64,000 nucleotides of DNA from Antedon mediterranea (lineage: Eukaryota > Animalia > Echinodermata). The translations under genes and the position numbers were made by a program. Numbering within the stretch: the stretch's first letter is position 1; each line of letters opens with the position of its first letter. The stretch covers positions 31,564,437 through 31,628,436 of the forward strand of contig NC_092672.1 in the NCBI RefSeq assembly GCF_964355755.1. Reading direction: 5' to 3'. Shown here piece after piece: positions 47 to 61,291 of the stretch. The notes under the pieces are model-generated. The model worked only from the letters and a program-made list of their open reading frames with translations, made no database searches and had not been told where the DNA came from.

Positions 47-1084
47 TTATAGACCCAATGTTTGTTTGAAATAGTTTAAACCTAGGAATTTGTAAAACAC
101 TTCTCTAATTTTAGGATTTGTGAGGGCGTAAAGGAATGGATTGAGGGCAGAGTTGCTCCACAAGAGGTAATTCACGAACTCCCAGAGGGTGTCACTTAAA
201 CAGTCATCACAGACGATACTCCAAATAAGCACAATGCAATAAGGAGTCCAGCAGACAATAAAAGCAGAAACTAAAACCGCGAGAGTTACTGCAGCTTTTC
301 GATGTCGCTTAATCAAATTTATACTCGTATTTACGTGTTTTCGTGTAGAACCTGTGATCGATTGACCTGCACTGATCGATAAATGATTGTCTGCAACCCG
401 AAATAATGATTGGTTGTTATTGATGGGATTTGTGCGCGTACGATGACGTATCTGCGTATATACAATTGTATTTAAATATATTATGATGAATAACGGAATT
501 ACAAACTCAACGAATACAATTATCACATTGTACGCCATACTTTGTTCTGATTCCATTTCACAATTATCTGAATAATCTATTATTTTTTTACCCGTAAAGT
601 TTTCCCAGAATAAAGTTGGAATTGCGTAAAATGGTATGATAACAGCCCACGAGATAAGAATCATAACGGTAACGCGTTTTGTAGTCTGAAATTGACGGTA
701 TTTCAACTTAATTGTTAACATCCAGTATCGATCCAAACTGATTAAAATAATACCACAAACAGAAACAGCACATGCCGTGTAGTCAATGATCAACCACATC
801 TTACAGACGCCTTCACCAAATGGCCAGTAACCAAACATTAGCCAAAGAGTGTTAAGCGGGAACGAGAAAGCGCCAATGAAAAAATCAGCAACAGGCAAAT
901 TTAAAATGAACAAATATCCTGGTTTTGAATGAAAAGATGTTTCTGTTATGAGCACAAGAATGACGAGACCGTTTCCGATAACGGTTACAATAGACAAAAT
1001 CCATAGTATTACAATTCCTCCATTCACAATTAAAGTATCGTCTTCGGTTTGATTTCCGGCATCGTAATTGAAGGACGATTTCAT
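47..1084 (-). CDS. Class A GPCR copy 1, histamine H3/H4-like aminergic receptor (intact, most canonical)
   Basis: Seven TM segments with GN (TM1), CKMWLIIDY..C...SLDRY (D3.32), FVEFVIP (E5.46), CWTPY and LLWSNSALNPFLY (W7.43). First ATG at 1084, downstream of the acceptor tttctgtttcAG at 1121-1122. Confidence 0.9.
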   Translation of the reverse strand: MKSSFNYDAGNQTEDDTLIVNGGIVILWILSIVTVIGNGLVILVLITETSFHSKPGYLFILNLPVADFFIGAFSFPLNTLWLMFGYWPFGEGVCKMWLIIDYTACAVSVCGIILISLDRYWMLTIKLKYRQFQTTKRVTVMILISWAVIIPFYAIPTLFWENFTGKKIIDYSDNCEMESEQSMAYNVIIVFVEFVIPLFIIIYLNTIVYTQIRHRTRTNPINNNQSLFRVADNHLSISAGQSITGSTRKHVNTSINLIKRHRKAAVTLAVLVSAFIVCWTPYCIVLIWSIVCDDCLSDTLWEFVNYLLWSNSALNPFLYALTNPKIREVFYKFLGLNYFKQTLGL

Positions 1085-1186
1085 CGTTCTGAAGTGTCGT
1101 ACAGCACACAATTTGAATTACTGAAACAGAAAGTGGAAACAACAAAACAATGGCAATGTCATTAAGCTTCATAGTTACAAGACTAA

Positions 1187-1336
1187 AGCGTGGTTCCTCT
1201 TGCCAACGCAAAATCGTAAGTTTTCGACCAATCACCACGCGATGGAAGATTAGAACTGTGGCTTCCTTGTGATTGGTCAACTCACTTACATTACATCTAG
1301 GTCGTTGCGTTGCGTCTAAGAAGTAGGAACTAAGCT
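1187..1336. mobile_element. Palindromic MITE (PIF/Harbinger-like) in intron 1 of copy 1
   Basis: Ends AGCGTGGTTCC...GGAACTAAGCT flanked by TAA/TTA; internal inverted CCAATCAC/GTGATTGG; same family as 2547-2893. Confidence 0.6.
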
Positions 1337-1600
1337 TTAAATTACTGACACCCGTATTTTATGATAACAATGATTTGAAGAGGAAGGACCTTTGCACTTA
1401 AATGGAGTTCGATTCAGATGAAATTCTGCCTTTCTTTGGGATGTTGTCTCCCAGTATTAAACAGAAAAAGTTGGGGGTAGATTCATTGTTTCTATTTATC
1501 AGCGAATAAATAAATTAAGTTTACTGAATAATTCAGATATGAATATTGAAAAGGAAGATCGCGGACAGTAGGCCTTCTGTGGATGAAGAAAACAAATAAT

Positions 1601-3809: not shown

Positions 3810-4160
3810 GAGTGAGTGGCCGAGCGGTCAAGACAGTGGAACCGTAATTACGTAGCCATAACATCGGCAAGGGTTCGAGGCTCACTCGCTCCATGGTTCT
3901 GGTGGTAGAACGAGTCTTCTCGGATAAGGACTATAAACCGTAGGTCCAGTGTACACATAGCTCATGCTCACTTTAAAGAACCTAGTACATCTTTCGAGAC
4001 GAGTACCCCGGTGTACTAGTCCACACAAACACAGCCACTGTCACACACAGCCACTGTGCAAATTGGGACTGGACCGTTTTAGAGGTGTTTACCACCTGTT
4101 GGTCCAGATCCTTCACTAACTGAGTTAGTGAGAAGTCGAATAAATAAAAATAAAATAAAA
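3810..4160 (+). mobile_element. tRNA-derived SINE with Deu/Nin-like core
   Basis: A-box TGGCCGAGCGG and B-box GGTTCGAGGC; core TCGGATAAGGACTATAAACCGTAGGTCC...TAAAGAACC...CCCCGGTGT resembles the DeuSINE core (from recall); (AAAAT)n tail at 4140-4160. Confidence 0.7.
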
Positions 4161-5242
4161 ACGATTTGCATAACACAAACGAGCGTAACATTTTATTTTT
4201 GACCAGCATGCACAACAAATTGATACGATTGTTTCACAATACAAACACCAATTTACCTATTTTACAGATTTACACCGTGACAGGTTTAATTAATTGGAAA
4301 CTATTTTGGTCAATTGCATTATTACAACACTAGTTTCATGTTTCATTTTATTATTCATTATTGTCACGTTTTCAAATTATTTACATAATTAATAGCATGG
4401 CGCGGTGGTAATGTAAATTGATTCTGACGATGATACTATAATCTATCGATATTTTTACAAATATTGTTTCTCACTGATAAGGCAACCTACGCGCAACTCG
4501 AGTAAATCGACCAATCACAAGCGGCAGTTCAGATGATCCATTGATTAGTAAAATTGTACGAGTGTACGTACGTTGTGTTGTGCGAAACAAGACAAATGAT
4601 GCAAACTATACGGTATTGAAAATGTCAAAATCGGCACTGAATTTTGGTCGAAAGTTATTTCATCACGGTACCTTTTGGTTTTTACAACTAACAATGATCG
4701 GTCTGGTACCGTTTACTATAACAAGTACCTTACGTTGAATATACGTCATGGCGTTGCATTTACGTCGTTCTTACTTACAGCAGCATTTTTTCCTGTGAGG
4801 TTAAGGCAGAAATATGAATAATTCAGTACCTTGATTATTTTCTATCATAAAGAAAATTGCAAGATAGCTGATTACTTCTCTCAACTATTAAAAAAAACAT
4901 GTTCTTGATAGACCTCGAACCGGTGTAATAGTTTACACACATGATTTAATCTGGCCATGCTTATATAGCGCCCTCTATAACGACTGATTTCTGCCTTAAT
5001 CTCATAGAAAAAAAATGCAGCCCGGCAGCATTATTTCTGCCTCAACGAACCTAACCGGAAAATAAATAATGCAACCGGGCACTTTAAATTAATGTCTTAC
5101 TTGTTTCTTAGCATTGACATTATGCAACCACAATATTAGGTGCTATATAAATCTAGGATATTATTATTATTTTTTAACCTAAATTGTACATCAGTTGATA
5201 GCACCAAAACATTGGTTAGGTTCATGCATTTACTTTTAAAAT

Positions 5243-6199
5243 TCATTTGAAACATTTAAGACGAAGGAACTTGAAAAACACGTCTCTGATTTTAAGATTT
5301 GTAAGTGCATAAAGGAATGGATTGATGGCAGAGTTACTGAACAAGAGGTAGACTAAAACCACGTAAACAATTTCATCTGGTGAGTAATCACTAACACTAC
5401 TAAAAAAAAGCACAGTACAGTAAGGAGTCCAGCAGATGATAAAGGCAGAAAGTAAAACAGCAAGAGTTACTGCAGCCTTTCGATGTCGTCTCATTGAAGA
5501 AATTGCTATGTTCCGTTGGGTAGAAAATGCAATGATTGATAATGGATTTGTACGCGTACGATGACGTATCTCTTTGAATACATAACTATTCAAATAAATT
5601 ATAATGGTTAATGGTATCACAAAATTAACGAATATAGCTATCAAACTGTAAGCCGTACTTTCTTTCAATTCGTTATCGCACTCTTTTGAGTAGTCAATTA
5701 TTTGTTCTCCTTTGATTTTCTCACCGAATAAATATGGAATTGCGTAAAATGGTAATATAACAGCCCACGAGACAAGAATCATAACGGTAACTCGTTGTGT
5801 AGTCTGAAATTTACGGTATTTCAACTTTAGTTTTAGCATCCAGTACCGGTCCAAACTGATTAAGATAATACCACAAACAGAAACAACACATGCCGTGTAT
5901 TTAATGATCAACCACATCTTACAGACGCCTTCACCGAATGGCCAATAACCAAACATTAGTTCAAAGATGCTAAGCGGGAATGCGAAAGCGCCAATTAAAA
6001 AGTCGGCAACAGAAAGATTTAAGATGAACAAATTCGCTGGATTCGAACGAAGCGATTTTTCGGTGATGAAAGCAAGAATTACCAGACTGTTTCCGAACAC
6101 GGTCACTACGGATATAAACCAGCATATGATGATTCCGCCGGATACATTCAAAGTATCGTCAGTTTGATTTCCGACATCATTGTCGCTTAAAAAATCCAT
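5243..6199 (-). CDS. GPCR copy 2 (intact; K at 3.32, N at 5.46, F at 7.43)
   Basis: Full 7TM ORF ending KCFK*; ATG at 6199; acceptor ttttatttagtttcAG at 6223-6224. Confidence 0.88.
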   Translation of the reverse strand: MDFLSDNDVGNQTDDTLNVSGGIIICWFISVVTVFGNSLVILAFITEKSLRSNPANLFILNLSVADFLIGAFAFPLSIFELMFGYWPFGEGVCKMWLIIKYTACVVSVCGIILISLDRYWMLKLKLKYRKFQTTQRVTVMILVSWAVILPFYAIPYLFGEKIKGEQIIDYSKECDNELKESTAYSLIAIFVNFVIPLTIIIYLNSYVFKEIRHRTRTNPLSIIAFSTQRNIAISSMRRHRKAAVTLAVLLSAFIICWTPYCTVLFFSSVSDYSPDEIVYVVLVYLLFSNSAINPFLYALTNLKIRDVFFKFLRLKCFK

Positions 6200-6550
6200 A
6201 TTGAAGTGATCTTGGACAATCACTGAAACTAAATAAAACAGTAGTTTGAGTTAGAATAACTAATCCGTTTAAACTACTTCGTGCAATGTTGTTCTATAGG
6301 CCCTATTGTTATTGTCTATGATAACTGAAATGTCATGTTTATTTAGTTGCATTGCTCCCAATTTTGATATAGTAATTTTAAATACAATTTACAAATAATT
6401 TATTTGCAGTGATGTTAAATTTGTATATACTGTGCATACTACAAAATAAGATTATCAGAAAACTCCGATATAGAACAATTAAAAAACAATACATGGTTCC
6501 GATTTTGCTATTATTGTTTTCGATATTTTTGAATAAACAATACACATTGT

Positions 6551-6780
6551 ACTTACAGTGTATTAAATGCCACTATTCATCAGTCAGTGATGGAGTTCTA
6601 AGTTGTCCACACTGGTTGTCGCTACGATATTAAATTGAATAAAAGATGCATCGTATATTAATTATTATATACATACATTGTTAGACCAATCAAGTATAAA
6701 GTTACATTTTAATGGAAGTAATCATATCATTTATAATCTAATAATGATATTCTATAATTAGGAGGGCGCGATACTAATTA
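6551..6780 (-). promoter_or_regulatory. Putative promoter and non-coding exon 1 of copy 2
   Basis: Donor GTAAGTA at 6556; Inr-like TCAATT ~6637; TATATAA ~6666-6672; CCAAT ~6686; GGAGGGCGCG 6761-6770. Confidence 0.55.
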
Positions 6781-8166
6781 TTTGAAAAATCAATTACTTA
6801 CTTTCAAGTAGTCACTGATTGTGTTTTACAGTCATGTCCACGTGTGTTGTCTGACCATTCTCTTACGTTATTTTCCTCACATTTAGCACGAACATTTTCT
6901 CGTGTATTACTCGTGTCAAATGAATAAGATGCATGGCCTAACTTCAGCAAACTGCAGTTACCGAAGATTGTCAACTGTCAACTACATAGTCATACCAAAC
7001 GGTGAAAAGCTTTTCTTTCCAAACTCGTTGTAACAAACTGCCACTTTTTAAACTATTTACTGAAGGCCGTCATTCTGTCCATAATCACATGAATACCCTA
7101 CAAAACTGTTATCTGACAACCCTCAGCAAGCTAGTTTGTCGACATATTTTCTTCAAAATAAAAAGGCTTAACTTCTGCAAACTAATTTCCAAGTAGTTTG
7201 CCAATTGGTCTAAAGTTTTTTGACAAACGAACATTGTTACAACCAAGCTTTAGGTGCTCGAGTTTACCATTATAGCCTAAACCTTAAGTCTCCCGAATAA
7301 TATGTTCTTTCTGTGGATTTGGAACTATACCGTATTTTAAAACTTAGCTTGTTTTTTATTGCTACAATTTTTAAAAATGTTATTTAGAAATTGTATATAC
7401 CTGTATATCTTTGTACTTTTTATAAAATCTAAAACTGTTGTGCAGTAGTTCTTACAGTCATGGCAAATTGTACTGCACATTTTTATATGTATTTTTTTTA
7501 ACCAGAAAGAGCACTTAAAGGTATTTTGGTTGTTTTTAGTTTTTAATCTTTAAAAAAATAAATAAATAAAAGAAATCCTAAATTTTAAAATGTCTGAACC
7601 TAAAAGTGAACAAATTAACTACAACTTTTAATACGTTGCATTTCGCACGAATATTCTCGCGTGTCACAGTAATATTACTCGTGTCATAAGCGGTATATTG
7701 CTGTCCTAAAAAGTTTGTTATTGAAGTTTTTTTTTTCATTTTGTGAACGAGTGCATTTGAAATATGTAACTACTAAAGGCAGGGTAATCATTGCAAACTT
7801 TGGCGAGAAAAGTCTCTTAACTTCTACAGACTATAGTTCTGTAATTTGCAGAAGTTTGTAAACTGGTTCTACACTAGAAAACTTTGGAAAAACGTATCTT
7901 AGCAACTGTTAAAGTTTGCACAAGTTAAGCTTCCTGTCTAAACTGGAGGCTGTCAAATACGGCCTAACGTATGCAAAGTAGTTTACCGCAGCCTCGGCAG
8001 CACTACAACTTTAGGCCTACGGTTTGCAAACTCAGACAAGAACAGTTTTCTAAAATGTGCTAGTTGGCAAACTGCACACAAATTAGAAGACATTATTTTT
8101 TAGTAGCCGACTGGCGAGATAGAGTTTCAACCTCATCAGTCGAATCATGACATCCATCATCTCTAA

Positions 8167-8753
8167 AGCTTGGTTTCCACTTTCGACGCAACGCAAGGAC
8201 GTAACGCAATGTAAAGCGTGGTTCCCACTAGCGACGCAACACAAAGACGTAACGCAACGAAAGTGAATTGACCAATCACAAGCGATGGCTTATTCGCTTG
8301 TGATTGCTAACCGTCTATAACTTCGCTTGTCATTGGTTAAAACGCTTGCATTGCGTTTACGTCCTTGCGTTATGTTCTAGTGGGAATCGAGCTTTAGTGA
8401 TTTGACAAATCACAAGCGATGTATTATTTAAACAGTGGCTTGCCATTGGTCAACTCGCTTGCGTTGCGCGTAGACCTACGTCTTTGAGTTGCGTCTCTAG
8501 TGGAAACCACGCTTAAAGATGTATTGTCCCCTAAAAACTTGAAAAATGAAGATTAATTAAATCAGACTTTGAATAGGTTATTTTGTAGTTTTGATAAAGT
8601 GAATCACTTCCGTAGAAAAAAAAAACCGCTTTCAATTCCATTTTGTTTAGGTAAATAAATTATTTTATAAGTCAATAACTATTATATGAGATTAAAATGG
8701 CATATTCAACAACAAACATTTAAACAATTATTTTTCAGGGAGACAATACATCT
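8167..8753. mobile_element. Duplicated nested Harbinger MITE (8167-8513) plus Kolobok-like MITE (8517-8753)
   Basis: Same TIRs and TTAA sites as 2547-3132. Confidence 0.7.
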
Positions 8754-9406
8754 TTAATACATCGACTACAAGTTTTTCATCTTGTTCTTAAAAAATATTT
8801 TTGTGTAATCTGGTTTTATTTCGGTAACTTGATCGGTAAAATCAACTCTTTAAAAAATATATAAGAAGCCAAATATTTAACTATAAAAAACTTTACTACA
8901 TCTGCTACAACTGTATCACTAAAATAAGACCGAACGAATGGACTGAATATTTGTGCAGATAACACAGGTAAGTAGACTTAACCCAATTACATTACCATAG
9001 TATTAGATAATTAAAAAGCAAGATTATGAATGAAGCAGGTTACATAAAATGAAAAGCCCTAATTTCTTGATTAAAAGCACTAATTAATAAATGACGTAAA
9101 CAAAATTACATTACCATAATGTACCGTACGTTACATCATTATATTCTAGGCCTATATTTCGGCTTTTCATCTTTTTTTAGTTTTTTTAACATCATCTTGA
9201 CGGTACCTTTTGCGTGTTAAGAAAGCCGGAACATTGTCTCCGTATTCTTTAAAACTGAACTTACTTTTGTTTAATTATAGTTATGAAATTATTAAGGAAT
9301 ATTTATCTAATTGCATTAATAATCGGAATGTTTAATTTATATAATTTTCTTCCTCGGATTTCCATTAGAATGTTCTAGTTTTAGCCCATGTTTCCACAGC
9401 CGTAAC

Positions 9407-10126
9407 AAACAAGGCCATATAGGTGGCTGCAGTCGCGTGCTTAGTGTTTACCGACCGACCAATCAACCTACCAACTGACCGAAATTACTGAACTGAAAAA
9501 TGTTGAAATGTTTAAAAACAGTTATATTTTTTTAATTTACACGTCCGTAGCCTGTCACTTTTGACGTGCTCGTATAACGTAATTTCGAGTTGAAAAGTAA
9601 GTCAAGAAAACAGAAATCGGGCAAAAAGAGTGCGCAAAAACATTTAACGCGCAGTGCGCGCGCAAAAATCTGCGCACTCATGGCAATTTTGTAAACGCTT
9701 AAAATTGCCTGAAACGTACTCTTATTTCATCGAAAATAAATTTTGAAAATTTTAAGCGCGCGTACGCATGCGTTACATGCGCTACGCACGTAATTGTATT
9801 GCCATATGATGATTTATGCCCTGAAATTTATGAGTACCAAATTTTATTTAATTGTGATTCATGGTTGTGAAGATATGATTACAAACGTGATTTCGTTAAA
9901 TCGTGCGTAGACCTCGTAATTTTGTATTGCGCACCGTGAAAACATAACCACATCGATTCCTGGCCATAAGGAATATACTGTGAAAAATTGACTTAGCTAG
10001 ATTAAACTGATATCAAGATAAGGTCAGAAAGCGATAAAACGCATAGTGATACCGGACCGACAGACAGACCGACAGACCGACAGACCGACATAGTGAACTA
10101 TAGAGTCGCTTCCACGCGACTAAAAA
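9407..10126 (-). mobile_element. DINE-1/HINE-like non-autonomous Helentron-type element
   Basis: Reverse complement of the 13736 element: TTTTTAGTCGCGTG start, (GTCG/GTCT)n microsatellite, 3' CACGCGACT and GGCCTTGTTT end. It lies inside a GCCCATGTTTCCA / TGGAAACACGGCC MITE. Confidence 0.65.
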
Positions 10127-10260
10127 GTATCATTTCATTTTTAACCAATCAGATAATAATATATCGGTTAATTATCGGTTACTTTTTGGCTTTGGAAACA
10201 CGGCCTTACACTGTCCTAAGTAATACAATTACGTTTAGCGAAAAGATTGGTTCCCATTAG

Positions 10261-10552
10261 GCAAGGGTTCGAGGCTCACTCGCTCCATGGTTCTGGTGGT
10301 AGAACGAGTCTTCTCGGATAAGGACTATAAACCGTAGGTCCAGTGTACACAATAGCTCATGCGCACTTTAAAGAACCTAGTACATCTTTCGAGACGAGTA
10401 GGGGGTAGGGGGTTACCCCGGTGTACTAGTCCACACAAACACAGGCACTGCAAATTGGGACTGGACCGTTTTAGAGGTGTTTACCACCTGTTGGTCCAGA
10501 TCCTTCACTAACTGAGTTAGTGAGAAGTCGAATAAATAAAAATAAAATAAAA
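10261..10552 (+). mobile_element. 5'-deleted copy of the Deu-like SINE
   Basis: Matches 3868-4160 from the B-box onward. Confidence 0.7.
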
Positions 10553-11637
10553 ACGATTTGCATAAAACAAACGAGCGTAACATTTTATTTTTGACCAGCA
10601 TGCACAACAAATTGATACGATTGTTTCACAATACAAAAACCAATTTACCTATTTTACAGATTTACACCGTGACAGGTTTAATTAATTGGAAACTATTTTG
10701 GTCAATTGCATTATTACAACACTAGTTTCATGTTTCATTTTATTATTCATTATTGTCACGTTTTCAAATTATTTACATAATTAATAGCATGGCGCGGTGG
10801 TAATGTAAATTGATTCTGACGATGATAATATAATCTATCGATATTTTTACAAATATTGTTTCTCACTGATAGGGCAACCTACGCGCAACTCGAGTAAATC
10901 GACCAATCACAAGCAGCAGTTCGGATGATCCATTGATTAGTAAAATTGTACGAGTGTACGTACGTTGTGTTGTGCGAAACAAGACAAATGATGCAAACTA
11001 TACGGTATTGAAAATGTCAAAATCGGCACTGAATTTTGGTCGAAAGTTATTTCATTACGGTACCTTTTGGTTTTTACAACTAACAATGATCAGTCTGGTA
11101 CCGTTTACTATAACAAGTACTTTGCGTTGAATATACGTCATGGCGTTGCATTTACGTCGTTCTTACTTACAGCAGCATTTTTTCCTGTGAGGTTAAGGCA
11201 GAAATATGAATAATTCATTACCTTGATTATTTTCTATCATAAAGAAAATTGCAAGATAGCTGATTACTTCTCTCAACTATTAAAAAAAAACATGTTCTTG
11301 ATAGACCTCGAACCGGTGTAATAGTTTACATACATTATTTAATCTGGCCATGCTTATATAGCGCCCTCTATAACGACTGATTTCTGCCTTAATCTCATAA
11401 AAAAAAATGCAGCCCGGCAGCATTATTTCTGCCTCAACGAACCTAACCGGAAAATAAATAATGCAACCGGGCACTTCTTTGAATTAATGTCTTACTTGTT
11501 TCTTAGCATTGACATTATGCAACCACAATATTAGGTGCTATATAAATCTAGAATATTATTATTATTTTTTAACCTAAATTGTACATCAGTTGATAGCACC
11601 AAAACATTGGTTAGGTTCATGCATTTACTTTTAAAAT

Positions 11638-12584
11638 TCATTTGAAACATTTAAGACGAAGGAACTTGAAAAACACGTCTCTGATTTTAAGATTTGTAAG
11701 TGCATAAAGGAATGGATTGATGGCCGAGTTACTCCACAAGAGGTAGACTAAAACCGCATAAACAATTTCATCTGGTGAGTAATCATTAACACTACTCAAA
11801 AAAAGCACAGTACAGTCCAGCAGATGACAAAAGCAGAAAGTAAAACCGCAAGAGTTACTGCAGCCTTTCGATGTCGTCTCATTGAAGAAATTGCTATGTT
11901 CCGTTGGGTAGAAAATGCAATGATTGATAATGGGTTTGTACGCGTACGATGACGTATCTCTTTGAATACATAACTATTCAAATAAATTATAATGGTTAAT
12001 GGTATCACAAAAATAACGAATAGACCTACCAATCTGTAAGCCGTACTTTCTTTCAATTCTGTATCGCACTTTCTTGAGTAGTCAATTTGTTCTCCTCTGA
12101 TTTTCTCACCGAATAAATATGAAATTGCGTAAAATGGTAATATAACAGCCCACGAGACAAGAATCATAACGGTAACTCGTTGTGTAGTCTGAAATTGACG
12201 GTATTTCAACTTTAGTTTTAGCATCCAGTACCGATCCAAACTGATTAAGATAATACCACAAACAGAAACAGCACATGCCGTGTAATTAATGATCAGCCCC
12301 ATCTTACAGACGCCTTCACCGAATGGCCAATAACCAAACATTAGTTCAAGGATGCTAAGCGGGAATGCGAAAGCGCCAATTAAAAAGTCGGCAACAGAAA
12401 GATTTAAGATGAACAAATTCGCTGGATTCGAACAAAGCGATTTTTCGGTGATGAAAGCAAGAATTACCAGACTGTTTCCGAACACGGTCACTACGGATAT
12501 AAACCAGCATATGATGATTCCGCCGGATACATTCAAAGTATCGTCAGTTTGATTTCCGACATCATTGTCGCTTAAAAAATCCAT
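11638..12584 (-). pseudogene. GPCR copy 3, frameshifted (N at 3.32)
   Basis: 7-bp deletion at ~11816 between AGT microhomologies (copy 2: acAGTaaggAGTcc) destroys CWTPY; TM7 and KCFK* continue in another frame to 11638; also W3.28G. Confidence 0.85.
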
Positions 12585-13735
12585 ATTGAAGTGATCTTGG
12601 ACAATCACTGAAACTAAATAAAACAGTAGTTTGAGTTAGAATAACTAATCCGTTTAAACTACTTCGTGCAATGTTGTTCTATATAGGCCCTATTGTTATT
12701 CTCAATGATAACTCAAATGTCATGTTTATTTAGTTGCATTGCTCCCAATTTTAATATAATAATTTTAAATACAATTTACAAATAATTTATTTGCAGTGAT
12801 GTTAAATTTGTATATACTGTGCATACTACAAAATAAGATTATCAGAAAACTCCGATATAGAACAATTAAAAAACAATACATGGTTCCGATTTTGATATTA
12901 TTGTTTTCGATATTTTTGAATAAACAATACACATTGTACTTACAGTGTATTAAATGCCACTATTCATCAGTCAGTGATGGAGTTCTAAGTTGTCCACACT
13001 GGTTGTCGCTACGATATTAAATTGAATAAAAGATGCATCGTATATTAATTATTATATACATACATTGTTAGACCAATCAAGTATAAAGTTACATTTTAAT
13101 GGAAGTAATCATATCATTTATAATCTAATAATGATATTCTTTAATTAGGAGGGCGCGATACTAATTATTTGAAAAATCAATCACTTACTTTCAAGTAGTC
13201 ACTGATCGTGTTTTACAGTCATGTCCACGTGTGTTGTCTGACCATTCTCTTACGTTATTTTCCTCACATTTAGCACGAACATTTTTTGTGTATTACTCGT
13301 ATCAAATGAATAAGATGCATGGCCTAACTTCAGCAAACTGCAGTTACCGAAGATTGTCAACTGTCAACTACATAGTCATACCAAATGGTGAAAAGCTTTT
13401 CTTTCCAAACTCGTTGTAGCAAACTGCCACTTATTAAACTATTTACTGAAGGCCGTCATTCTGTCCATAATCACATGAATACCCTACAAAACTGTTATCT
13501 GACAACCCTCAGCAAACTAGTTTGTCGACATATTTTCTTCAAAATAAAAAGGCTTAACTTTTGCAAACTAATTTCCAAGTAGTTTGCCAATTGGTCTAAA
13601 GTTATTTGACAAACGAACATTTTTACAACCAAGATTTAGGTGCTCGAGTTTACCCTAAACCTTAAGTCTCTTGAATAATGTTTTCTTGTTGTGGATTTGG
13701 AACTATACGGTATTTAAAATATTCAAACTTATCAG

Positions 13736-14613: not shown

Positions 14614-14888
14614 TTGTATATACACCTGTATATCTTTATTGTATATACCTGTATATCTTTATTGTATATACCTGTATATCTTTATTGTATATACCTGTAT
14701 ATCTTTATTGTATCCTGTATATCTTTATTGTATATACCTGTATATCTTTATTGTATATACCTGTATATCTTTATTGTATATACCTGTATATCTTTATTGT
14801 ATATACCTGTATATCTTTATTGTATATACCTGTATATCTTTATTGTATATACCTGTATATCTTTATTGTATATACCTGTATATCTTTG
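14614..14888. repeat. 23-bp minisatellite (~12 copies)
   Basis: Unit TTGTATATACCTGTATATCTTTA; single copy at the paralogous sites ~7391 and ~19324. Confidence 0.95.
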
Positions 14889-15017
14889 TACTTTTTATGA
14901 AATCTAAAACTGTTGTGCAGTAGTTCTTACTGTCATGACGAATTGTACTGCACATTTTTATATGTATTTTTGTGAACCAGAAAGAGCACATAAAGGTATT
15001 TCGGTTGTTTTTAATTT

Positions 15018-15679
15018 TGTAATATAACGATATACTTTTATAATTAAAATATTGACCTTTGTATCAGAATTCAAATAAGTTCACAAACTTGACCCAGAAA
15101 GTCCAGAGGAGAGTTTGTCCAGATGTTTTAATGACCATTTAGTTTATAATAGAATCCCTAAAGAAAACACTTAGCTTAATTTTGTGACTTTTCCCACCGT
15201 TAAATCAGGAGAGATTGACACTATTTAAGTACAGATTTGACAGTGTCAGCCATCATAGAAATACCTTATTATACCGTTAATCACTTCTAACTAAACACCC
15301 CTGGATCAACTTAGGACCAATCGTTACCCTCACAGATTACGTAGTGACATATGCAAATGAACCGAAGCCAATATACCCCCAAGTTTCAGAAGGGCCCAGA
15401 CACACACCTTACAGCCACTTCACGGAGCACACACCTTACAGCCACTTCACGGAGCACACACCTTACAGCCACCTCACGGAGCACACACCTCACAGCCACT
15501 TCTTCAGAAGCAGACCTACACACTTCACACCTCACCGACAGCATCACTGATCCTCCATTCCTTATCTATACTTATAGTTGTATATTGTACTGAAGTATTA
15601 TACTGAATAAACAATATGTGTTACGACAATTAAGCGAGTAAGAGTCTTCATTAGTACCTCAACAAAACACTATATTACA
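15018..15679 (+). mobile_element. Solo LTR
   Basis: TGTAATATA...TATATTACA ends, 4-bp ATTT duplication, AATAAA at 15606, three internal 27-bp repeats; absent from the paralogous site at ~7540. Confidence 0.8.
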
Positions 15680-17033
15680 ATTTTAATCTTTAAAAAAAAA
15701 AAATTAAATAACAGAAGGACTAAATATTAAAATGTCTGAACCTAAAAGTGAACAAATTAACTACAGATTTATAGCCAAAATACCGACGTTAACATTAAAA
15801 AAAGAGAACCCAAGTTGGCAAAGAACAAATCAACAATTATCAGCTGCTAAAATCATCAATACTTTATTTACAACATATTTGTTTTGTTACACTAGCAGCA
15901 TTGGGTAATAAAAAAACAAGATTATGAATGTAAATTGTAATTACCTTAACTTTTATTTTCTTGTTGAGTTGATTAAAGAAACACTATTATTTTATTAAAT
16001 GTAATAAATATGAATCCAAGATAACATTAATAGCAGATTCATAAACATTTTTTAAAATCCTATGTCAGTTAACAATAAGTTACGCAATTCAAAAACATGA
16101 CACTGGTGAAAAAAAAATAATTCTTTATTTTCGTCTACTACTATTATGGCTAGAAATTGCAACATTTAATACTTTTTTTTCAGTACACAAGTCACATGAC
16201 ACAAGTCGTAATAACATATCTGTTGGCGCCGGTTTACATAATGCCAACTATCGGAAATATTAAAAAGAAAGCAAACAAGCAATTTACTTTATAATATAAG
16301 TTAGTGCAATTTTTATGTGGGAATGATAGCAATATTAATCGTCTCTGATACTGTAGATGATGATAGATTAACATAAGAAGACAATAACGTGTGTGGTATG
16401 TGTGTGAACAGACGTTAGAAATGTGTAAATATATAGTAAACGTGTCAATACAGTAAATTGACATTATTCATCAAACTCGATTCACACATAGGCCTACAAC
16501 AGTAACAAATTGATACAATTAAATGTGTGAAAGCGTATCCGTGGTACTTAGATGTAAAATCTCGGACATTTATGTAAAGACTTGAAACCATTACATTACC
16601 ATAGTATTAGAGTGTGATTGAAGCAGCTTACATAAAATGTAAAGCCCTAACTTCGGTTTTCATTTCTTATTGAGTTGATAAAAGCATTAATTAATATATG
16701 ACGTAAACAAAATTACATTATCATAATGTACATTCAATTTTTATATAAATTGGCGCCTATGTCTTTTCATCGGTTTTCGGATTTTAAAAACTTTTTTGTG
16801 TTAAGGAAGCTGAAATAGTAATCTACGCATTCGTTGCCACTAAACTTGACATACTTTTGTTAAAATATTGTTATGAAATTTATTAGGCACTTAATAAAAT
16901 CAATGTCTATCACGTGTTCTTTATTTCTTACTTCTTCAAGCAACTACGTGATCTTTGAGAGTTTTCAACCTAAATTGTACATCAGTTGATAGCATCAAAA
17001 TGTTTGTTAGTTTCCTGCATTTAGTTCCAAAGT

Positions 17034-17995
17034 TTACTTGAAACATTTTAGACGAAGGATCTTGAAAAACACATTTCTGATTTTAAGATTCGTAAGTGTG
17101 TAAATGAATGAATTGATGGCAGAGTTACTCCACACGAGGTAGAGTAAAACCGCATAAACAATTTCATCTGCTGAGTAATAACTAATACTACCAAAAAAAA
17201 GCACAGTACAGTAAGGTGTCCAGCAGATGATAAAGGCACAAAGTAAAACAGCAAGAGTAACTGCAGCCTTTCGATGTCGTCTCATTGAAGAAGAAATTTC
17301 TGTATTTACGTTCCATTGGGTAGAAAATGCAATGATTGGATTTGTACGCGTACGATGACGTATCTCTTAAATACATAGCTATTCAAATATATTATAATTG
17401 TTAACGGTATCACAAAATAAACGAATAAATTTACCAAACTGTAAGATGTACTTTCTTTCAATTCTTTACCGCACTCTTCTTTTGAGTAGTCAATTGTTTG
17501 TTCTCCTCTAAATTTCTCCCAGAATAAAATTGAAAGTGTGTAAAATGGTATGAGAATAGCCCACGAGACAAGAATCATTACGGTAACTCGTTTTGTAGTC
17601 TGAAAATGACGGTATTTTAACTTCATTTTTAACATCCAGTACCGATCCAAACTGATTAAAATAATACCACAAACAGAAACACCACATGCCGTGTAGTCAA
17701 TGATCAACCACATCTTACAGACGCCTCCGCCGAATGGCCAATAACCAAACATATTCAAAAGTGTGAAAGGCGGGAACGAGAAAGCACCAACGAAAAAGTC
17801 CGCTAGAGAAAGATTCAAGATGAACAAATTTGCTGGCTTCAAACGAAGCGATGTTTCGGTGATAAAAGCAAAAATGACGAGACTGTTTCCAAACACGGTC
17901 ACTACGCACATAATCCAGCATATGATGATTCCGCCGGATACAGTCAAAGTATCGTCAGTTTCATTTACGACATAGTTGTCGCTAGGCGATTCCAT
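17034..17995 (-). pseudogene. GPCR copy 4, frameshifted
   Basis: 1-bp deletion at 17367-17368 relative to copy 5 (tctcttaaa vs tctctttaaa); NPxxY also altered to NSFIY. Confidence 0.8.
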
Positions 17996-19475
17996 ATTGG
18001 AAGTGAGCTTGCACAAACTAAATAAAAAGTAGTTTTAGTTGGAATAGATTCTAAAGGTAATGATAATCTGTTTAAACTACAGTACTTCGTTCAATGTTGT
18101 TCTATATAGGCCCTAAATTGCAATTCTCACAACTCAAATGTCATGTTTATTTAGTTGTATTTGCTTCCAATTTTAAGATTTTGCAACATAAATACAATTA
18201 ACTTATAAGATAAGTTATTTGGAGTGATGTAAAATTTGTATCTACATACTACAAAAGAAGATTTTCAGAAAACTCCCAAATAGTGAAATTAAAATAATAA
18301 TTTGCACCATAATTAAAACTTACGAATATCATATATAATAATAAGTTATTTGAATTGCATACTAAAAAATAAGATTATCAGAAAACTTCGATAGTGAAAT
18401 TAAAAAAAAAAACACTACATGGTTCGATTTTAATATTGTGTTCGATAATTTTGAATAAACAATATACATTGTACTTACAGTGTATTAAATGCCACTATTC
18501 ATCAGTCAGTGATGGAGTTCTAAGTTGTCCACACTGGTTGTCGCTACGATATTAAATTGAATAAAAGATGCATCGTATATTAATTATTATATACATACAT
18601 TGTTAAACCAATCAAGTATAAAGTTACATTTTAATGGAAGTAATCATATCATTTATATTTTAATATATTCTATAATTAGGAGGGCGCGATACTAATTATT
18701 TTAAAATCAATCACTTACTTTCAAGTAGTCACTGTTGTTGATCGTGTTTTACAGTCATGTCCACACGTGTGTTGTCTGACCATTCTCTTACGTTATTTTC
18801 CTCACATTTCGCAAGAACATTTTCTCGTGTATTACTCGTGTCAAATGAATAAGATGCATGGCCTAACTTCAGCAAACTGCAGTTACCGGAGATTGTCAAC
18901 TGTCAACTACATAGTCATACCAAACGGTGAAAAGCTTTTCTTTCCAAACTCGTTGTAACAAACTGCCACTTTTTATTATTTTTTACTATTTACTGAAGGC
19001 CGTCATTCTGTCCATAATCACATGAATACCCTACAAAACTGTTATCTGACAACCCTCAGCAAGCTAGTTTGTCGACATATTTTCTTCAAAATAAAAAGGC
19101 TTAACTTCTGCAAACTAATTTCCAAGTAGTTTGCCAATTGGTCTAAAGTTATTTGACAAACGAACATTGTTACAACCAAGCTTTAGGTGCTCGAGTTTAC
19201 CATTATAGCCTAAACCTTAAGTCTTCCGAATAATATGTTCTTTCTGTGGATTTGGAACTATACCGTATTTTAAAACTTAGCTTGTTTTTTATTGCTACAA
19301 TTTTTAAAAATGTTATTTAGAAATTGTATATACTTGTATATCTTTGTACTTTTTATAAAATCTAAAACTGTTGTGCAGTAGTTCTTACAGTCATGGCAAA
19401 TTATACTGCGCATTTTTATATGTATTTTTGTGAACCAGAAAGAGCACATAAAGGTATTTCGGTTGTTTTTAATTT

Positions 19476-20142
19476 TGTAATATAACGATATACTTTTATA
19501 ATTAAAATATTGACCTTTGTATCAGAATTCAAATAAGTTCACAAACTTGACCCAGAAAGTCCAGAGGAGAGTTTGTCCAGATGTTTTAATGACCATTTAG
19601 TTTATAATAGAATCCCTAAAGAAAACACTTAGCTTAATTTTGTGACTTTTCCCACCGTTAAATCAGGAGAGATTGACACTATTTAAGTACAGATTTGACA
19701 GTGTCATCCATCATAGAAATACCTTATTATACCGTTAATCACTTCTAACTAAACACCCCTGGATCAACTTAGGACCAATCGTTACCCTCACAGATTACGT
19801 AGTGACATATGCAAATGAACCGAAGCCAATATACCCCCAAGTTTCAGAAGGGCCCAGACACACACCTTACAGCCACTTCACGAAGCACACACCTTACAGC
19901 CACTTCACGGAGCACACACCTTACAGCCACCTCACGGAGCACACACCTCACATCCACTTCTTCAGAAGCAGACCTACACACTTCACACCTCACCGACAGC
20001 ATCACTGATCCTCCGTTCCTTATCTATACTTACAGTATAGTTGTATATTGTACTGAAGTATTATACTGAATAAACAATATGTGTTACGACAATTAAGCGA
20101 GTAAGAGTCTTCATTAGTACCTCAACAAAACACTATATTACA
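19476..20142 (+). mobile_element. Solo LTR, duplicated along with the ~4.46-kb unit carrying copies 4 and 5
   Basis: Near-identical to 15018-15679 with the same flanks. Confidence 0.8.
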
Positions 20143-21483
20143 ATTTTAATCTTTAAAAAAAAAAAATTAAATAACAGAAGGACTAAATATTAAAATGTCT
20201 GAACCTAAAAGTGAACAAATTAACTACAGATTTATAGCCAAAATACCGACGTTAACATTAAAAAAAGAGAACCCAAGTTGGCAAAGAACAAATCAACAAT
20301 TATCAGCTGCTAAAATCATCAATACTTTATTTACAACATATTTGTTTTGTTACACTAGCAGCATTGGGTAATAAAAAAACAAGATTATGAATGTAAATTG
20401 TAATTACCTTAACTTTATTTTCTTGTTGAGTTGATTAAAGAAACACTATTATTTTATTAAATGTAATAAATATGAATCCAAGATAACATTAATAGCAGAT
20501 TCATAAACATTTTTTAAAATCCTATGTCAGTTAACAATAAGTTACGCAATTCAAAAACATGACACTGGTGAAAAAAAAATAATTCTTTATTTTCGTCTAC
20601 TACTATTATGGCTAGAAATTGCAACATTTAATACTTTTTTTTCAGTACACAAGTCACATGACACAAGTCGTAATAACATATCTGTTGGCGCCGGTTTACA
20701 TAATGCCAACTATCGGAAATATTAAAAAGAAAGCAAACAAGCAATTTACTTTATAATATAAGTTAGTGCAATTTTTATGTGGGAATGATAGCAATATTAA
20801 TCGTCTCTGATAGATGATGATAGATTAACATAAGAAGACAATAACGTGTGTGGTATGTGTGTGAACAGACGTTAGAAATGTGTAAATATATAGTAAACGT
20901 GTCAATACAGTAAATTGACATTATTCATCAAACTCGATTCACACATAGGCCTACAACAGTAACAAATTGATACAATTAAATGTGTGAAAGCGTATCCGTG
21001 GTACTTAGATGTAAAATCTTGGACATTTATGTAAAGATTTGAAACCATTACATTACCATAGTATTAGAGTGTGATTGAAGCAGCTTACATAAAATGTAAA
21101 GCCCTAACTTCGGTTTTCATTTCTTATTGAGTTGATTAAAAGCATTAATTAATTTATGACGTAAACAAAATTACATTACCATAATGTACATTCAATTTTT
21201 ATATAAATTGGCGCCTATGTTTTTTCATCGGTTTTCGGATTTTAAAAACTTTTTTGTGTTAAGGAAGCTGAAATAGTAATCTACGCATTCGTTGCCACTA
21301 AACTTGACATACTTTTATTAAAATATTGTTATGAAATTTATTAGGCACTTAATAAAATCAATGTCTATCACGTGTTCTTTATTTCTTACTTCTTCAAGCA
21401 ACTACGTGATCTTTATGAGTTTTTCAACCTAAATCGTACATCAGTTGATAGCATCAAAATGTTAGTTAGTTTTTTTTCTGCAT

Positions 21484-50126: not shown

Positions 50127-51074
50127 TCATTTGAAAAATTTTAAACAGAAAAATTTAAAAAATACGTTTCTGATTTTGAGATTTGTAAGTGCGTAAAGGA
50201 ATGGATTGATGGCAGAGTTGCTCCACAAGAGGTAGGTGACGACCTCCACAAAAATGTAATCTAGTGAGTTATCACTAACTCTATTCCAAATAAGCACAAC
50301 GTTGTAAGGAGCCCAGCAGATTGCAAAAACAGAAACCAATACCGCAAGAGTTATTGCCGCTTTTCGATGTCTTCTCATTGAAGACATTGTCGTATTCACG
50401 CTTGCAGCCTGAAATACTGATTTGTTTCTATTCAGCACACTGTGATTTCTACGCGTACGTTGACGTATCTCTTTGTATACAGTGCTATTCAGATATATTA
50501 TAATAGGTAACGGTATTACAAACGAAAAGAATAGGCATACCAACTTGTACGCCTGTCCCGATTCCATATAACAATTTTCTGAATAATCAATTTCAACTTT
50601 TTTACCGGTAAATTTCTTCCAACAAAAAATTGGAATTGCGTATAACAGTATGCAAATGATCCATGTGGTAATTATCATAACGGTAACGCGTTTCGTAGTC
50701 TGAAACTGACGGTATTTCAACTTCATTTTTAACATCCAGTACCGATCCAAACTGATTAAAATAATACCACAGACAGAAACAGCACATGCCGTGTAGTCAA
50801 TGATCAACCACATTTTACAGACGCCTTCACCAAATGGCCAATAACCAAACATTAGCCAAAGAGTGTAAAGCGGGAACGAGAAAGCGCCAACTAAAAAATC
50901 CGCTACAGAAAGATTCAAGATGAACAAATCGGTTGGATTCGAACGAAGTGACTTTTCGGTGATAAAAGCAAGGATGACGAGACTGTTTCCAAATACGGTC
51001 ACTGCGGATAACAGCCAGCTTATGACGACTCCGCCGGATACATTTAAAGTTTGATTGAAGGACGATTCCATCAT
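50127..51074 (-). CDS. GPCR copy 9 (intact; D3.32, S5.46)
   Basis: Full 7TM ORF; ATG at 51074 or 51071; acceptor ttttatttagtttcAG just upstream. Confidence 0.88.
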   Translation of the reverse strand: MMESSFNQTLNVSGGVVISWLLSAVTVFGNSLVILAFITEKSLRSNPTDLFILNLSVADFLVGAFSFPLYTLWLMFGYWPFGEGVCKMWLIIDYTACAVSVCGIILISLDRYWMLKMKLKYRQFQTTKRVTVMIITTWIICILLYAIPIFCWKKFTGKKVEIDYSENCYMESGQAYKLVCLFFSFVIPLPIIIYLNSTVYKEIRQRTRRNHSVLNRNKSVFQAASVNTTMSSMRRHRKAAITLAVLVSVFAICWAPYNVVLIWNRVSDNSLDYIFVEVVTYLLWSNSAINPFLYALTNLKIRNVFFKFFCLKFFK

Positions 51075-51312: not shown

Positions 51313-51858
51313 TAATTAAACATTTCGCATAAACGCAATATTGCGATACAAGATAAACTTATTAATCAAACAATTTTTTGTAATTATTTGTGTTTACATT
51401 GATTACCACTGACGGATACAAGTATCTTTTCTTTACCTCTCATTTTTACAGTGTTTAATTTGGTCCATATAATAGCCTAAATATTCATATTTATCAATCA
51501 AAAATTTCGCATAAACACGATATTGCGATACGAGATAAACTTATCAATCAAATAATTTTTTTGTAATTATTTGTGTTTACATTGATTACCATTGACGTAT
51601 ACAAATATCTTTTCTTTACCTCTCATTTTTACAGTGTTTAATTTGGTCCATAATAGCCTAAATATTCATATTTATCAATAAAAAATTTCGCATAAACACG
51701 ATATTGCGATACGAGATAAACTTATCAATCAAACAATTTTTTTGTAATTATTTGTGTTTACATTGATTACCATTGACGTATACAAATATCTTTTCTTTAC
51801 CTCTCTTTTTTACAGTGTTTAATTTGGTCCATAGTAAATATTCATATTATCAATCAAT
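51313..51858. repeat. Three tandem ~181-bp repeats
   Basis: ATTTCGCATAAAC recurs at ~51322, ~51504 and ~51685; a related single unit lies at ~36070-36255. Confidence 0.85.
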
Positions 51859-58739: not shown

Positions 58740-58950
58740 TACACTGGAGTTCTTACATCAGACATTTGAAAAGCCCTAGGCAATGTGGATCACATTATCT
58801 TAATTAAGAAACTAGAAGCAACGGGAATAGATAACTCAACCGTTAAGATCTTATCTTGCAACAGACAGCATACAGTTTTTGTTAAAAACACACATTCCCG
58901 TCTCCTTTCTATTCCATGTGGTGTTCCACAAGGTAACATAGGACCTCTTT
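58740..58950 (+). mobile_element. Old LINE RT fragment (CR1/L2 group)
   Basis: DHIILIKKL ... RQHTVFV ... CGVPQG. Confidence 0.6.
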
Positions 58951-60298
58951 GCTACGTTCAATTTTCAATTCAATTCAATTCAATTTATTTTCCACATACA
59001 ACTGGTATAATAATCTTTAATGTCTTTCTGTTTTGTTCTTTCTCACATAAATAAAATCAAAACTTAAGACAAAAACCAAACTAAACTAAACAACTACTAC
59101 AACAAACTACATTAAAGAACAACACATATTCTGGTCTCCTTTCTATTTTATGTGGTGTTCTACAATGAGGTATAACATAGGACCTTTTTGTACGTTCAAT
59201 TTTCAATTCAATTCAATTCAATTTCTTTTCCACATACTACAACTACTACAACCAAGATCTGTGCAGAGCACAGATCTTTAAGCTAATAAGCAACCTTACA
59301 AAATAATAAATATTTACAATAAGCATACAAGCAAGTGAATAAATAAATAAATAAGTAAACAAATAAATTTTGTATATATTGTATAAAATATAATAAAAAA
59401 GCAGGGTAGTATTTATTCACCATATATCGAGATCAGAGGCAGTTTAAAAGCACACTTATTTACTGATGCCAAGTAAAGATCCCGTCTTATAGCTAGTGAT
59501 CTAAGCAATGAACTCAAATCATGTAATCATTTGTATCCTGATAACATATCAATTCACTTGAGGCTGCCTTATTTGGAACAAATAGTTAATTAAAACAAGC
59601 TAATGACTTCTAGATTGTAGCGGAAGTAAACAAGCAACCTGCGCATTTTCTTTAGGTATATCACTTGATAAGTCATTACATAGTAGATTTAGTTTTTTTT
59701 TAGTTTAAGAGATAAAGTTTTTGTATAAACAAGTATTATTTCTTAATAAATACGCTAGAAAACAATTATATTCTGATCTTATTCAACATAATTTTGATTA
59801 GCCGACGCGTTGTATCATGGTGCCAAGCAAGAGGACAAGCCTATCATTAAAATCAGCCATTTTGCTCGAAAATAATTGTTTTATTAAATTGTTGGTTGTG
59901 ATATTTTACAATGATCGATCTCAGAGTTACAGAACTTGTTTTTCGTTCTAAGTTAATTTTTATACCTCATTTACGTCGTTTTTTGTTGTCTACATCATTG
60001 TATATTTCGTTTTTGTGTTGATATAAGTAGATTTTGCGTTGCGCGTATACGTTAACCGCCGTGTAGGCTTGCTCCAAATCTGTATTTATTGTCTTTTTTA
60101 TGTTAGATTCACACGTCGATTTGTGTCTGAAAATACCAAGCTAAAGTAGTATACATATGAAACGCCATATGTGCCAAAACTTTTTACTAATATTAAGACT
60201 GTTTTTCAATAGTATTGACTTTACACAGCACACACGATCTTTAAAATGTACATACATGATAACAGCAAATCATCTGTTTAGTTTCATAAATCCAAAGC

Positions 60299-61291
60299 TC
60301 ATTTGAAGCATTTTAGACCGAAGAACTTGAAAAACACCCCTCTGATTTTAAGATGTGTAAGTGCATAAAGGAATGGATTGATGGCCGAGTTACTCCACAA
60401 GAGGTAGAGAACAAACGACCAAACAATCATAGCTGGTGAGTTGTTATCATCACTAATTACACTCCAAATAAGCACAATCGAGTAAGGAGTCCAGCAGATG
60501 ACAAAAGCAGAAACTAGAGCCGCAAGAGTTATTGCCGCTTTTCGATGTCTTGTATTATCCACGTTTTGTTGGTCAGACCTCGAAGATGTATAACCTGTAG
60601 TGATTGGTGTAAGATTGTTTGCAACCTGGTGTATTGATTGGTTGTGATTTATACGCGTGCGATGACGTATCTCTTTGAATACATAGCTATTCAAATATGC
60701 TATAATGGTTAACGGTATTACAAAATAAACGAATATAGTTACCAAAGTGTAAGGCAGACTTGTTGACTCTATATCGCAATATACTGAATAGTCAATTATT
60801 TGTTCACCTCTGAATTTCTCCCAGAATAAAATTGGAATTGCGTAAAATGGCAAGACAGCCGCCCACGAGACAAGAATCATTACGGTAACTCGTTTTGTAG
60901 TCTGAAATTGAAGGTATTTCAACTTCAGTTTTAACATCCAGTACCGGTCCAAACTGATTAAGATAATACCACAAACAGAAACACCACATGTCGAGTAGTC
61001 AATGATCAACCACATCTTACAGACGCCTTCACCAAATGGCCAATAACCAAACATTAGCCAAAGAGCGTAAAGCGGGAAGGAGAAGGCACCAATGAAAAAG
61101 TCCGCTACAGACAGATTCAAGATGAACAAATTAGCTGGATTCGAACGAAGTGATTTTTCGGTGATGAAAGCGAGAATGATGAGACTGTTCCCGAACACGG
61201 TCACTACGGACAAAAACCAACATATGACGACTTCTCCAGATACAATCAAACTATCATCAGTTTGATTCAAATAGTTGCTGGACGATTCCAT
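60299..61291 (-). CDS. GPCR copy 10 (intact; D3.32, Y5.46)
   Basis: Full 7TM ORF ending KCFK*; acceptor ttttattcagtttcAG at ~61320. Confidence 0.9.
   Translation of the reverse strand: MESSSNYLNQTDDSLIVSGEVVICWFLSVVTVFGNSLIILAFITEKSLRSNPANLFILNLSVADFFIGAFSFPLYALWLMFGYWPFGEGVCKMWLIIDYSTCGVSVCGIILISLDRYWMLKLKLKYLQFQTTKRVTVMILVSWAAVLPFYAIPILFWEKFRGEQIIDYSVYCDIESTSLPYTLVTIFVYFVIPLTIIAYLNSYVFKEIRHRTRINHNQSIHQVANNLTPITTGYTSSRSDQQNVDNTRHRKAAITLAALVSAFVICWTPYSIVLIWSVISDDNNSPAMIVWSFVLYLLWSNSAINPFLYALTHLKIRGVFFKFFGLKCFK

Follow-up and report, generated by a model that had tools for sequence, protein, structure and literature searches.

A tandem array of class A amine-type receptors with a variable ligand pocket in the crinoid Antedon mediterranea

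Background

Neurotransmitter-to-chemoreceptor transitions listed in a 2024 review comprise only the IRs, TAARs (trace amine-associated receptors), and the cephalopod CRs, all of them ancient (PMC11526382). TAARs, whose olfactory expression and ligands are established, derive from HTR4 (PMC8032801, PMC8890504, PMC11526382) and have their place in the OG1 monoamine subclade (PMC10244343, PMC8032801). Together with the lamprey TARLLs they are characterized by descent from an amine receptor, by coding regions on a single exon, by gene birth and death, and by acidic anchors that turn over at position 3.32 and in transmembrane helix (TM) 5 (PMC8032801, PMC8890504, PMC4695389). TAARs were not found in 12 echinoderm genomes. 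Clustered expansions of rhodopsin-type G protein-coupled receptors (GPCRs), namely the surreal GPCRs and the starfish ApORs, have been proposed as echinoderm chemoreceptors, and clustered candidate olfactory GPCRs are reported from starfish tube feet (PMC5442662). Here we show that a 64,000-nucleotide stretch of the genome of the crinoid Antedon mediterranea (contig NC_092672.1, positions 31,564,437 to 31,628,436; the whole stretch is referred to as the window) carries a tandem array of ten receptor genes in which a conserved core is combined with a ligand pocket that differs from copy to copy.

The array resembles a TAAR-type repertoire in being clustered, in having a single coding exon per gene, and in undergoing birth and death. 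It differs in descent, nesting with histamine H3/H4, muscarinic, and H1-like sequences rather than with OG1 receptors, and in that loss of D3.32, which is compensated by D5.42 in TAARs, is uncompensated. With the surreal GPCRs and ApORs it shares the character of a clustered rhodopsin-type expansion; overlap with these families seems unlikely, and PMC5442662 never mentions histamine or muscarinic receptors. In bivalves, a variable number of 'HSR3' genes is described, with three in Mytilus (10.64898/2026.08.17.745212). No paper describing the array, or the echinoderm-hemichordate clade to which it belongs, was found in the literature searched; other published trees may include the broader clade under the label of 'H3-like' genes. 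The array is best read as a birth-and-death repertoire of working receptors whose ligands would be diverging; it resembles TAAR evolution but stems from another amine-receptor branch.

Methods

Receptor copies were located with tblastn and blastn using copies 1 and 8 as queries. A pool of 299 proteins was assembled from the ten of the window and from database matches, with 35 redundant rows (almost all H2-type) and the 6 records that correspond to genes in the window left out; 291 of these were analysed in FastTree, and hand-picked subsets of 81 and 45 rows in IQ-TREE. Residue numbering was anchored on D67, R119, W146, P197, P281, and P316 of copy 1 and on an alignment with H3R.

Ratios of non-synonymous to synonymous change (omega) were estimated with our own GY94/F3x4 implementation rather than codeml, using separate trees on each side of the exchange breakpoint; branch lengths were scaled from M0, and naive empirical Bayes was applied. 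Site models were fitted to copy sets that included or excluded pseudogenes, to a set lacking copy 2, and under 1-4 trees. Seventeen motif codons were defined from our own list of class A motifs. The pocket set comprised 16 positions from PMC11437213 and the vestibule set 8 positions from PMC9569329, together 24.

Results and discussion

Ten copies with a variable pocket

The ten copies, all on the minus strand, span positions 47..61291, and no further copy was found in the window by tblastn or blastn (Table 1). Each coding region lies in one stretch; frames are open in six (copies 1, 2, 5, 8, 9, and 10) and broken in four (copies 3, 4, 6, and 7). Both copies scanned match Pfam 7tm_1 at E 1e-49 or better, and the AlphaFold model of copy 1 is a seven-TM bundle with a predicted local distance difference test score (pLDDT) of 87.7. 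A fold search with this model matched muscarinic and H3 structures about equally and did not separate H3R from muscarinic receptors; the best sequence match of an array receptor in the PDB was a histamine H3/H4 receptor (E 1e-47).

The residues of copies 1-10, in order, are D,K,N,D,D,D,N,N,D,D at position 3.32, E,N,I,Y,Y,Y,Q,Q,S,Y at position 5.46, and C,C,C,C,C,Y,N,N,N,S at position 6.52; position 6.51 is Y in seven of the ten, F in copy 7, H in copy 8, and deleted in copy 3. Extracellular loop (ECL) 2 carries indels, a cysteine pair in ECL3 is retained only in copy 1, and intracellular loop (ICL) 3 varies from ~21 to 42 residues (counted by eye). A preliminary description of this DNA had claimed ten co-oriented, single-coding-exon receptors with four copies disrupted, the same residue strings at 3.32 and 5.46, and variation at 6.51/6.52, in ECL2 and ECL3, and in ICL3 length; searches and alignment bear out each of these points, the two strings exactly.

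Several residues expected of a histamine pocket are only partly retained: D3.32 is found in 6/10 copies, Y3.33 in 9/10, Y6.51 in 7/10, E5.46 in 1/10, and W7.43 in 8/10, the first four occurring together only in copy 1. F7.39, which with W7.43 determines the histamine pose in H3R/H4R (PMC11437213), is present in 0/10, copy 1 included, so that histamine is no more than a possible ancestral ligand.

Duplication and exchange

Copies 2/3, 4/5, and 7/8 arose as DNA duplications that include their flanks. Pairwise synonymous divergence (dS) among copies ranges from 0.02 to 0.57, with pair 2/3 at 0.03 and pair 4/5 at 0.02, and copies outside the close pairs are 75-91% identical. Copy 7 is a mosaic whose 5' third resembles copies 2/3 and whose remainder resembles copy 8 (max-chi 84; 0/2000 permutations; 352 triplets scanned). 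Its breakpoint falls in the ECL1-TM3 region (copy 1 residues 85-125), where dS is 0.23 versus 0.45-0.60 in most other regions, and this region is likely an exchange hot spot between copies. A retrocopy origin was considered and rejected, as flanks and a predicted upstream splice acceptor were duplicated along with the genes.

Outside the window, four further close copies (P0002, P0003, P0007, and P0011) are present in A. mediterranea, among database proteins 64-81% identical to copy 1, and are putatively on the contig of the array. They add to the array's ten, versus one close relative in the crinoid Anneissia japonica (P0004; at least one, among the matches listed in word-limited searches). 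P0002 and P0004 are identical at 29/29 signature positions, copy 1 differs from them at one (6.52), and P0002 has the shortest branch. The earlier suggestion that copy 1 lies closest to the ancestor thus holds within the window, where it is the most ancestral copy, but P0002 is closer still. The numbering of RefSeq accessions, in which 880 (copy 7) is followed by 884, 886, and 887, hints that the array continues beyond the window. Three more distant Antedon relatives also lie outside it (P0338, P0208, and P0221); P0338 and P0208 are putatively on the contig of the array, which may indicate an older and wider cluster, and P0208 and P0221 are placed in the same echinoderm-hemichordate clade as the array.

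Selection on core and pocket

On the reading developed here, purifying selection would preserve the activation motifs and the helical core, with residues of the pocket being replaced from one copy to the next. The 17 motif codons have an omega of 0-0.05 (0 in intact copies), and the 16-codon pocket, in the run alongside them, of 0.99-1.20. Compared with other TM sites, pocket omega is 1.20-1.30 versus 0.36-0.40 in five of five set-ups (p 3e-9 to 1e-6), a three- to fourfold difference in rate; when sites are divided by topology, omega is 1.17-1.23 in the pocket, 0.60-0.64 in the outer helix halves, and 0.28-0.32 in the inner halves, so that the pocket is faster than even the outer halves (p 0.0007-0.003, 3/3). 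Comparison of M1a with M2a gave p 0.011 and 0.0009 for ten copies (before and after a column-filter correction, respectively), 0.004-0.006 for the six intact copies, and 0.0085 for the five remaining without copy 2, while M7/M8 gave p 5e-6 to 8e-4 across sets; the observed statistic was reached in 0/27 null simulations. Top sites include 5.46, 7.32, 6.52, 5.42, 2.61, 7.39, 7.36, and 7.35. Of the 11 top sites in the six intact copies, 6 belong to the set of 24 pocket positions (Fisher p 1e-4, or 0.0025 when only the outer half is considered), and enrichment in these positions is significant in two of three sets (p 1e-4, 8e-4).

At the protein level, and in uneven samples that contain near-duplicates, the ratio of pocket to scaffold diversity is 0.73 in the H3/H4 group (75 proteins), 0.62 in protostome relatives (28), 1.00 in other members of the echinoderm-hemichordate clade (108), and 1.73 in the array (9 intact). 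An additional 11-site 'vestibule' set with omega 1.7-2.5 was set aside as circular, its sites having been picked after the site-model result was seen.

A number of observations weigh against ligand-driven diversification. Omega of the 16-codon pocket is not different from 1 (p 0.25-0.36); that of pocket and vestibule together is 1.27 in intact copies (p 0.16 versus 1) and 1.02 without copy 2; and that of the PMC9569329 vestibule falls from 1.91 in all ten copies (p 0.007) to 1.46 in the six intact ones (p 0.17) and 1.10 without copy 2. M1a/M2a weakens to p 0.043 for the six intact copies under four partitions, top sites 149, 290, 328, and 27 fall outside the pocket sets, and in the five copies left when copy 2 is excluded, pocket positions account for just 2 of 7 top sites (p 0.13). 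The halved dS of ECL1-TM3 is a sign of conversion, which can inflate omega. Beyond the codon models, the repertoire is small, with 6 open frames in the window, and copies without D3.32 gained no acid in TM5, unlike the clade III TAARs (PMC4695389).

These points bear on an alternative in which copy 1 and P0002 keep the ancestral job and the others are redundant duplicates drifting without ligand constraint towards pseudogenes, their scaffold kept briefly or by conversion. Such drift would fit a pocket omega indistinguishable from 1, the 4/10 broken copies, the omega of 0.7-1.1 in the recent pairs and of 1.49 on the copy 2 tip, and the signs of conversion. However, intact derived copies at dS 0.28-0.48 have accumulated zero replacements at the 17 motif codons, their tip omega is 0.44, a class with omega >1 is supported in every set tested, and change under drift would not be concentrated in the pocket with the core left intact; we consider this alternative unlikely, though a real rival. 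By branch, omega is 0.88 on broken tips, 0.44 on intact tips (copies 5, 8, 9, and 10), 0.48 on internal branches, 0.30 for copy 1, and 1.49 for copy 2.

In sum, the core is under the constraint of a working receptor, and genes of the array have been born, lost, and exchanged. Tandem birth-and-death evolution around a conserved scaffold, as proposed in the preliminary description, is borne out by the duplications, pseudogenes, exchange, and a motif omega of ~0. The excess of non-synonymous change expected at the pocket was found in part: the pocket lies well above the scaffold and site models are significant, but pocket omega is not significantly above 1 in intact copies. As pocket omega is ~1.0-1.3 and not significantly >1, relaxed constraint explains part of the signal. 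The pocket has probably been released from constraint, with some acceleration too, and the positively selected class, to which the site models lend moderate support, appears small.

Phylogenetic placement

In both IQ-TREE trees, an H3/H4 superclade that includes the array, itself part of OG30 (H1, H3, H4, and muscarinic receptors), excludes muscarinic, H1, and OG1 receptors with support of 100/100. It has three parts: an H3/H4 group, a protostome group, and an ambulacrarian (echinoderm-hemichordate) clade. The H3/H4 group contains H3 of fish, lungfish, and amphibians as well as sequences of amphioxus, of the hemichordates Glandiceps and Saccoglossus, and of molluscs, an annelid, and rotifers, and forms one clade without the array (100/97 in one IQ-TREE tree and 96/92 in the other); no echinoderm member occurs among its rows with species names, most rows being unnamed. 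The protostome group contains Owenia, Nucella, Priapulus, and other rows. The array is nested in the ambulacrarian clade (100/99), which comprises 123 rows in FastTree, has several members per species among named matches, and occurs in multiple copies among crinoids, starfish, brittle stars, urchins, and acorn worms. RefSeq labels inside it are inconsistent (H3-, H2-, H4-, H1-, M1-M5-, 5-HT-, octopamine-, and beta2-like). Joining this expansion to hemichordate H3/H4 costs 33 log units, with a borderline p of 0.053 in the approximately unbiased (AU) test. On whether its sister is the protostome group or the H3/H4 group, the AU test gave p 0.52, and both trees favour the protostome group (95/85, 89/85).

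F7.39 is present in 96% of the 51 H3/H4-group members having that column; it is lacking from the ambulacrarian clade, where N7.39 is the commonest residue (50% of 108). Copy 1 resembles HRH3/HRH4 in having D3.32, Y3.33, C3.36, E5.46, Y6.51, E7.36, W7.43, and the ECL3 cysteine pair, and these receptors are among its top fold matches, alongside muscarinic receptors. In contrast, the array forms a fast-turnover tandem array in a separate clade, F7.39 and W7.40 are absent in 10/10 copies, E5.46 is lost in 9/10, and the true H3/H4-group members in hemichordates are other genes (P0266, P0247). Other members of the ambulacrarian clade keep D3.32 in 99/106 and E5.46 in 50/106, whereas the array, with dS reaching 0.57, is younger, and its pocket varies most.

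The sequences indicate that the array genes are not H3/H4 orthologues; their clade is a distinct one within the H3/H4 superclade, and 'H3/H4-like' is fair as a nickname for them but not as membership. The H3/H4-like identity first assigned to them is therefore upheld at the level of the superclade, which the phylogeny with aminergic GPCRs supports at 100/100, but not at that of the H3/H4 orthologue group, outside which the array falls, in its own ambulacrarian clade and with F7.39 in none of the ten. In trees without TAAR sequences, the array sits with rows of the H3/H4, muscarinic, and H1-like types and away from those of H2, adrenergic, dopamine, and 5-HT1-type receptors. The proposed independence from TAARs is supported by placement in the H3/H4 superclade; the clade was already expanded across echinoderms and hemichordates, and the proposed recruitment of a histamine-receptor-like gene, if real, therefore probably long predates the array.

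Three sub-expansions of the ambulacrarian clade (P0022/P0052, P0055-P0059, and P0038/P0050/P0060; assigned through named members to brittle star, starfish, and acorn worm) show independent replacement of E5.46 by F, S, or T. In the protostome group (P0216, P0248, P0289, P0319, and relatives), E5.46 and W7.43 are present and F7.39 is absent; the group is distinct from spiralian H3/H4 orthologues, and Owenia has members in both it and the H3/H4 group.

Proposed function

Our preferred reading, held tentatively and at a little under an even chance, is that the array is a ligand-diversifying repertoire of class A amine-type receptors, most probably for external small molecules. The copies would bind different ligands, and a single acid is kept in most of the derived ones. 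Copy 1 and P0002 retain the ancestral two-acid pocket (D3.32 and E5.46), with a histamine-like or other diamine as predicted ligand; copies 5, 9, and 10, which retain D3.32 and have Y or S in place of E5.46, are predicted to bind other monoamines; copy 8 (N3.32, Q5.46), lacking an acidic anchor, is predicted to bind a non-amine, or nothing; and copy 2, with lysine at 3.32, may be decaying. Signalling would proceed via a heterotrimeric G protein, which as with H3R/H4R may be Gi/o, and the predicted place of expression is the sensory cells of the tube feet, of the pinnules, or of larvae. External chemosensation is favoured because the signature is typical of chemoreceptor families (PMC11526382) and because endogenous transmitter receptors keep fixed pockets; the sensory role is putative.

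The same sequence signature would be predicted if the repertoire were ligand-diverse but used inside the body (coelomocytes, gut, or mutable tissue) for endogenous, dietary, or microbial amines, nearer to the immune-cell H4R than to olfactory TAARs. The superclade includes H4R, an immune-cell receptor (PMC10954740), and histamine and an H3R antagonist alter metamorphic competence in sea urchins as internal modulators (PMC3460732). Yet endogenous transmitter sets are small and their receptor pockets conserved (ratio 0.62-0.73 in non-expanded relatives), and nothing in the analysis places these genes in immune cells; we regard internal use as improbable, though deserving of consideration. That the array is in part an assembly artefact is very improbable: the dS of 0.03 and 0.02, the 94-96% identity of the units including flanks, and the break of copy 4 at one base in an A run would suit alleles placed in tandem (pairs 2/3 and 4/5) and a homopolymer error, but the other copies, 75-91% identical, are left unaccounted for, a separate study has contigs from a second organism that align at ~92-96% to copy 1 and to copy 4/5, and selection tests hold with one copy per pair. 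At least eight distinct genes are present in the window even if both pairs are allelic false duplications.

Beyond a ligand-diversifying array, it is possible, if rather doubtful, that the whole ambulacrarian clade (>100 proteins sampled) is a home-grown amine-odour receptor family from a sister lineage of H3/H4, with the array still radiating and copy 8 stepping out of amine recognition.

Features of the window

Individual copies and associated features are summarized in Table 1. A pyrimidine tract followed by TTTCAG precedes the ATG in 8/10 copies. RefSeq model P0010 represents the gene of copy 7 and omits the stop-bearing stretch. Copy 2, despite its open frame, is absent from the database matches to its own sequence.

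Table 1. Receptor copies, duplication units, and predicted splice acceptor in the window
Feature	Position	Strand	Remarks
Copy 1	47..1084	-	Intact, 345 aa; ancestral-type pocket D3.32, E5.46, N7.39, W7.43; ECL3 cysteine pair
Duplication unit pair with copies 2 and 3	3866..13719		3866-7341 vs 10260-13719, 96%
Copy 2	5243..6199	-	Open frame, 318 aa; K3.32, N5.46, F7.43, E2.64; terminal-branch omega 1.49, possibly decaying
Copy 3	11638..12584	-	7-nt deletion near 11810 in TM6, just after W6.48; recent duplicate of copy 2
Duplication unit pair with copies 4 and 5	14865..23624		14865-19145 vs 19323-23624, 94%
Copy 4	17034..17995	-	Apparent 1-nt deletion in A run near 17365; recent duplicate of copy 5
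Copy 5	21484..22452	-	Intact, 322 aa; D3.32, Y5.46, L7.39
Copy 6	24034..24957	-	Pseudogene: 17-nt insertion, deletions, stops, 3' end lost
Copy 7	29825..30829	-	Single TGA at 30104-30106 in ICL3; mosaic; N3.32, Q5.46
Copy 8	37050..38054	-	Intact, 334 aa; N3.32, N4.57, Q5.46, H6.51; orthosteric pocket without acidic anchor
Copy 9	50127..51074	-	Intact, 315 aa; D3.32, S5.46, T7.39
Copy 10	60299..61291	-	Intact, 330 aa; D3.32, Y5.46, L7.39
Predicted splice acceptor in 5' untranslated region (copy 10 example)	61310..61345	-	Pyrimidine tract and TTTCAG, ~25-35 nt before ATG; putative function

Between copies 8 and 9 lies the coding region of a Gypsy-like long terminal repeat (LTR) retrotransposon (40866-44879, minus strand), a 1065-aa frame with reverse transcriptase, RNase H, and integrase by Pfam, and between copies 9 and 10 a fragmented non-LTR retrotransposon (53424-56746, plus strand) with endonuclease and reverse transcriptase by Pfam. 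A 58-bp satellite (25243-28949; 64 copies, 95% match) stands directly upstream of copy 6, the most decayed copy. Smaller tandem repeats are found at 14613-14887 (23 bp), 38442-38676 (21 bp), and 51314-51833 (181 bp).

Conclusions

The expansion is real and well structured, and it would represent a known kind of event, an amine receptor giving rise to a diversifying repertoire, in a lineage where TAARs are not found. Many echinoderm genes labelled 'muscarinic-like', 'H2-like', '5-HT-like', or 'beta2-like' in RefSeq belong to one unnamed clade, the identity of which bears on assigning pharmacology to receptors, for example in the case of H3R-antagonist effects in sea-urchin larvae. Few chemoreceptors of echinoderms have been identified. 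The array is young and holds derived copies next to one of ancestral type, and thereby offers six to nine clonable single-exon genes on which the transition can be tested. If the ambulacrarian clade were an amine-odour family, it would represent a further independent transition from neurotransmitter receptor to chemoreceptor, in lineages where TAARs are not found, and would offer candidate receptors for amine cues in larval settlement.

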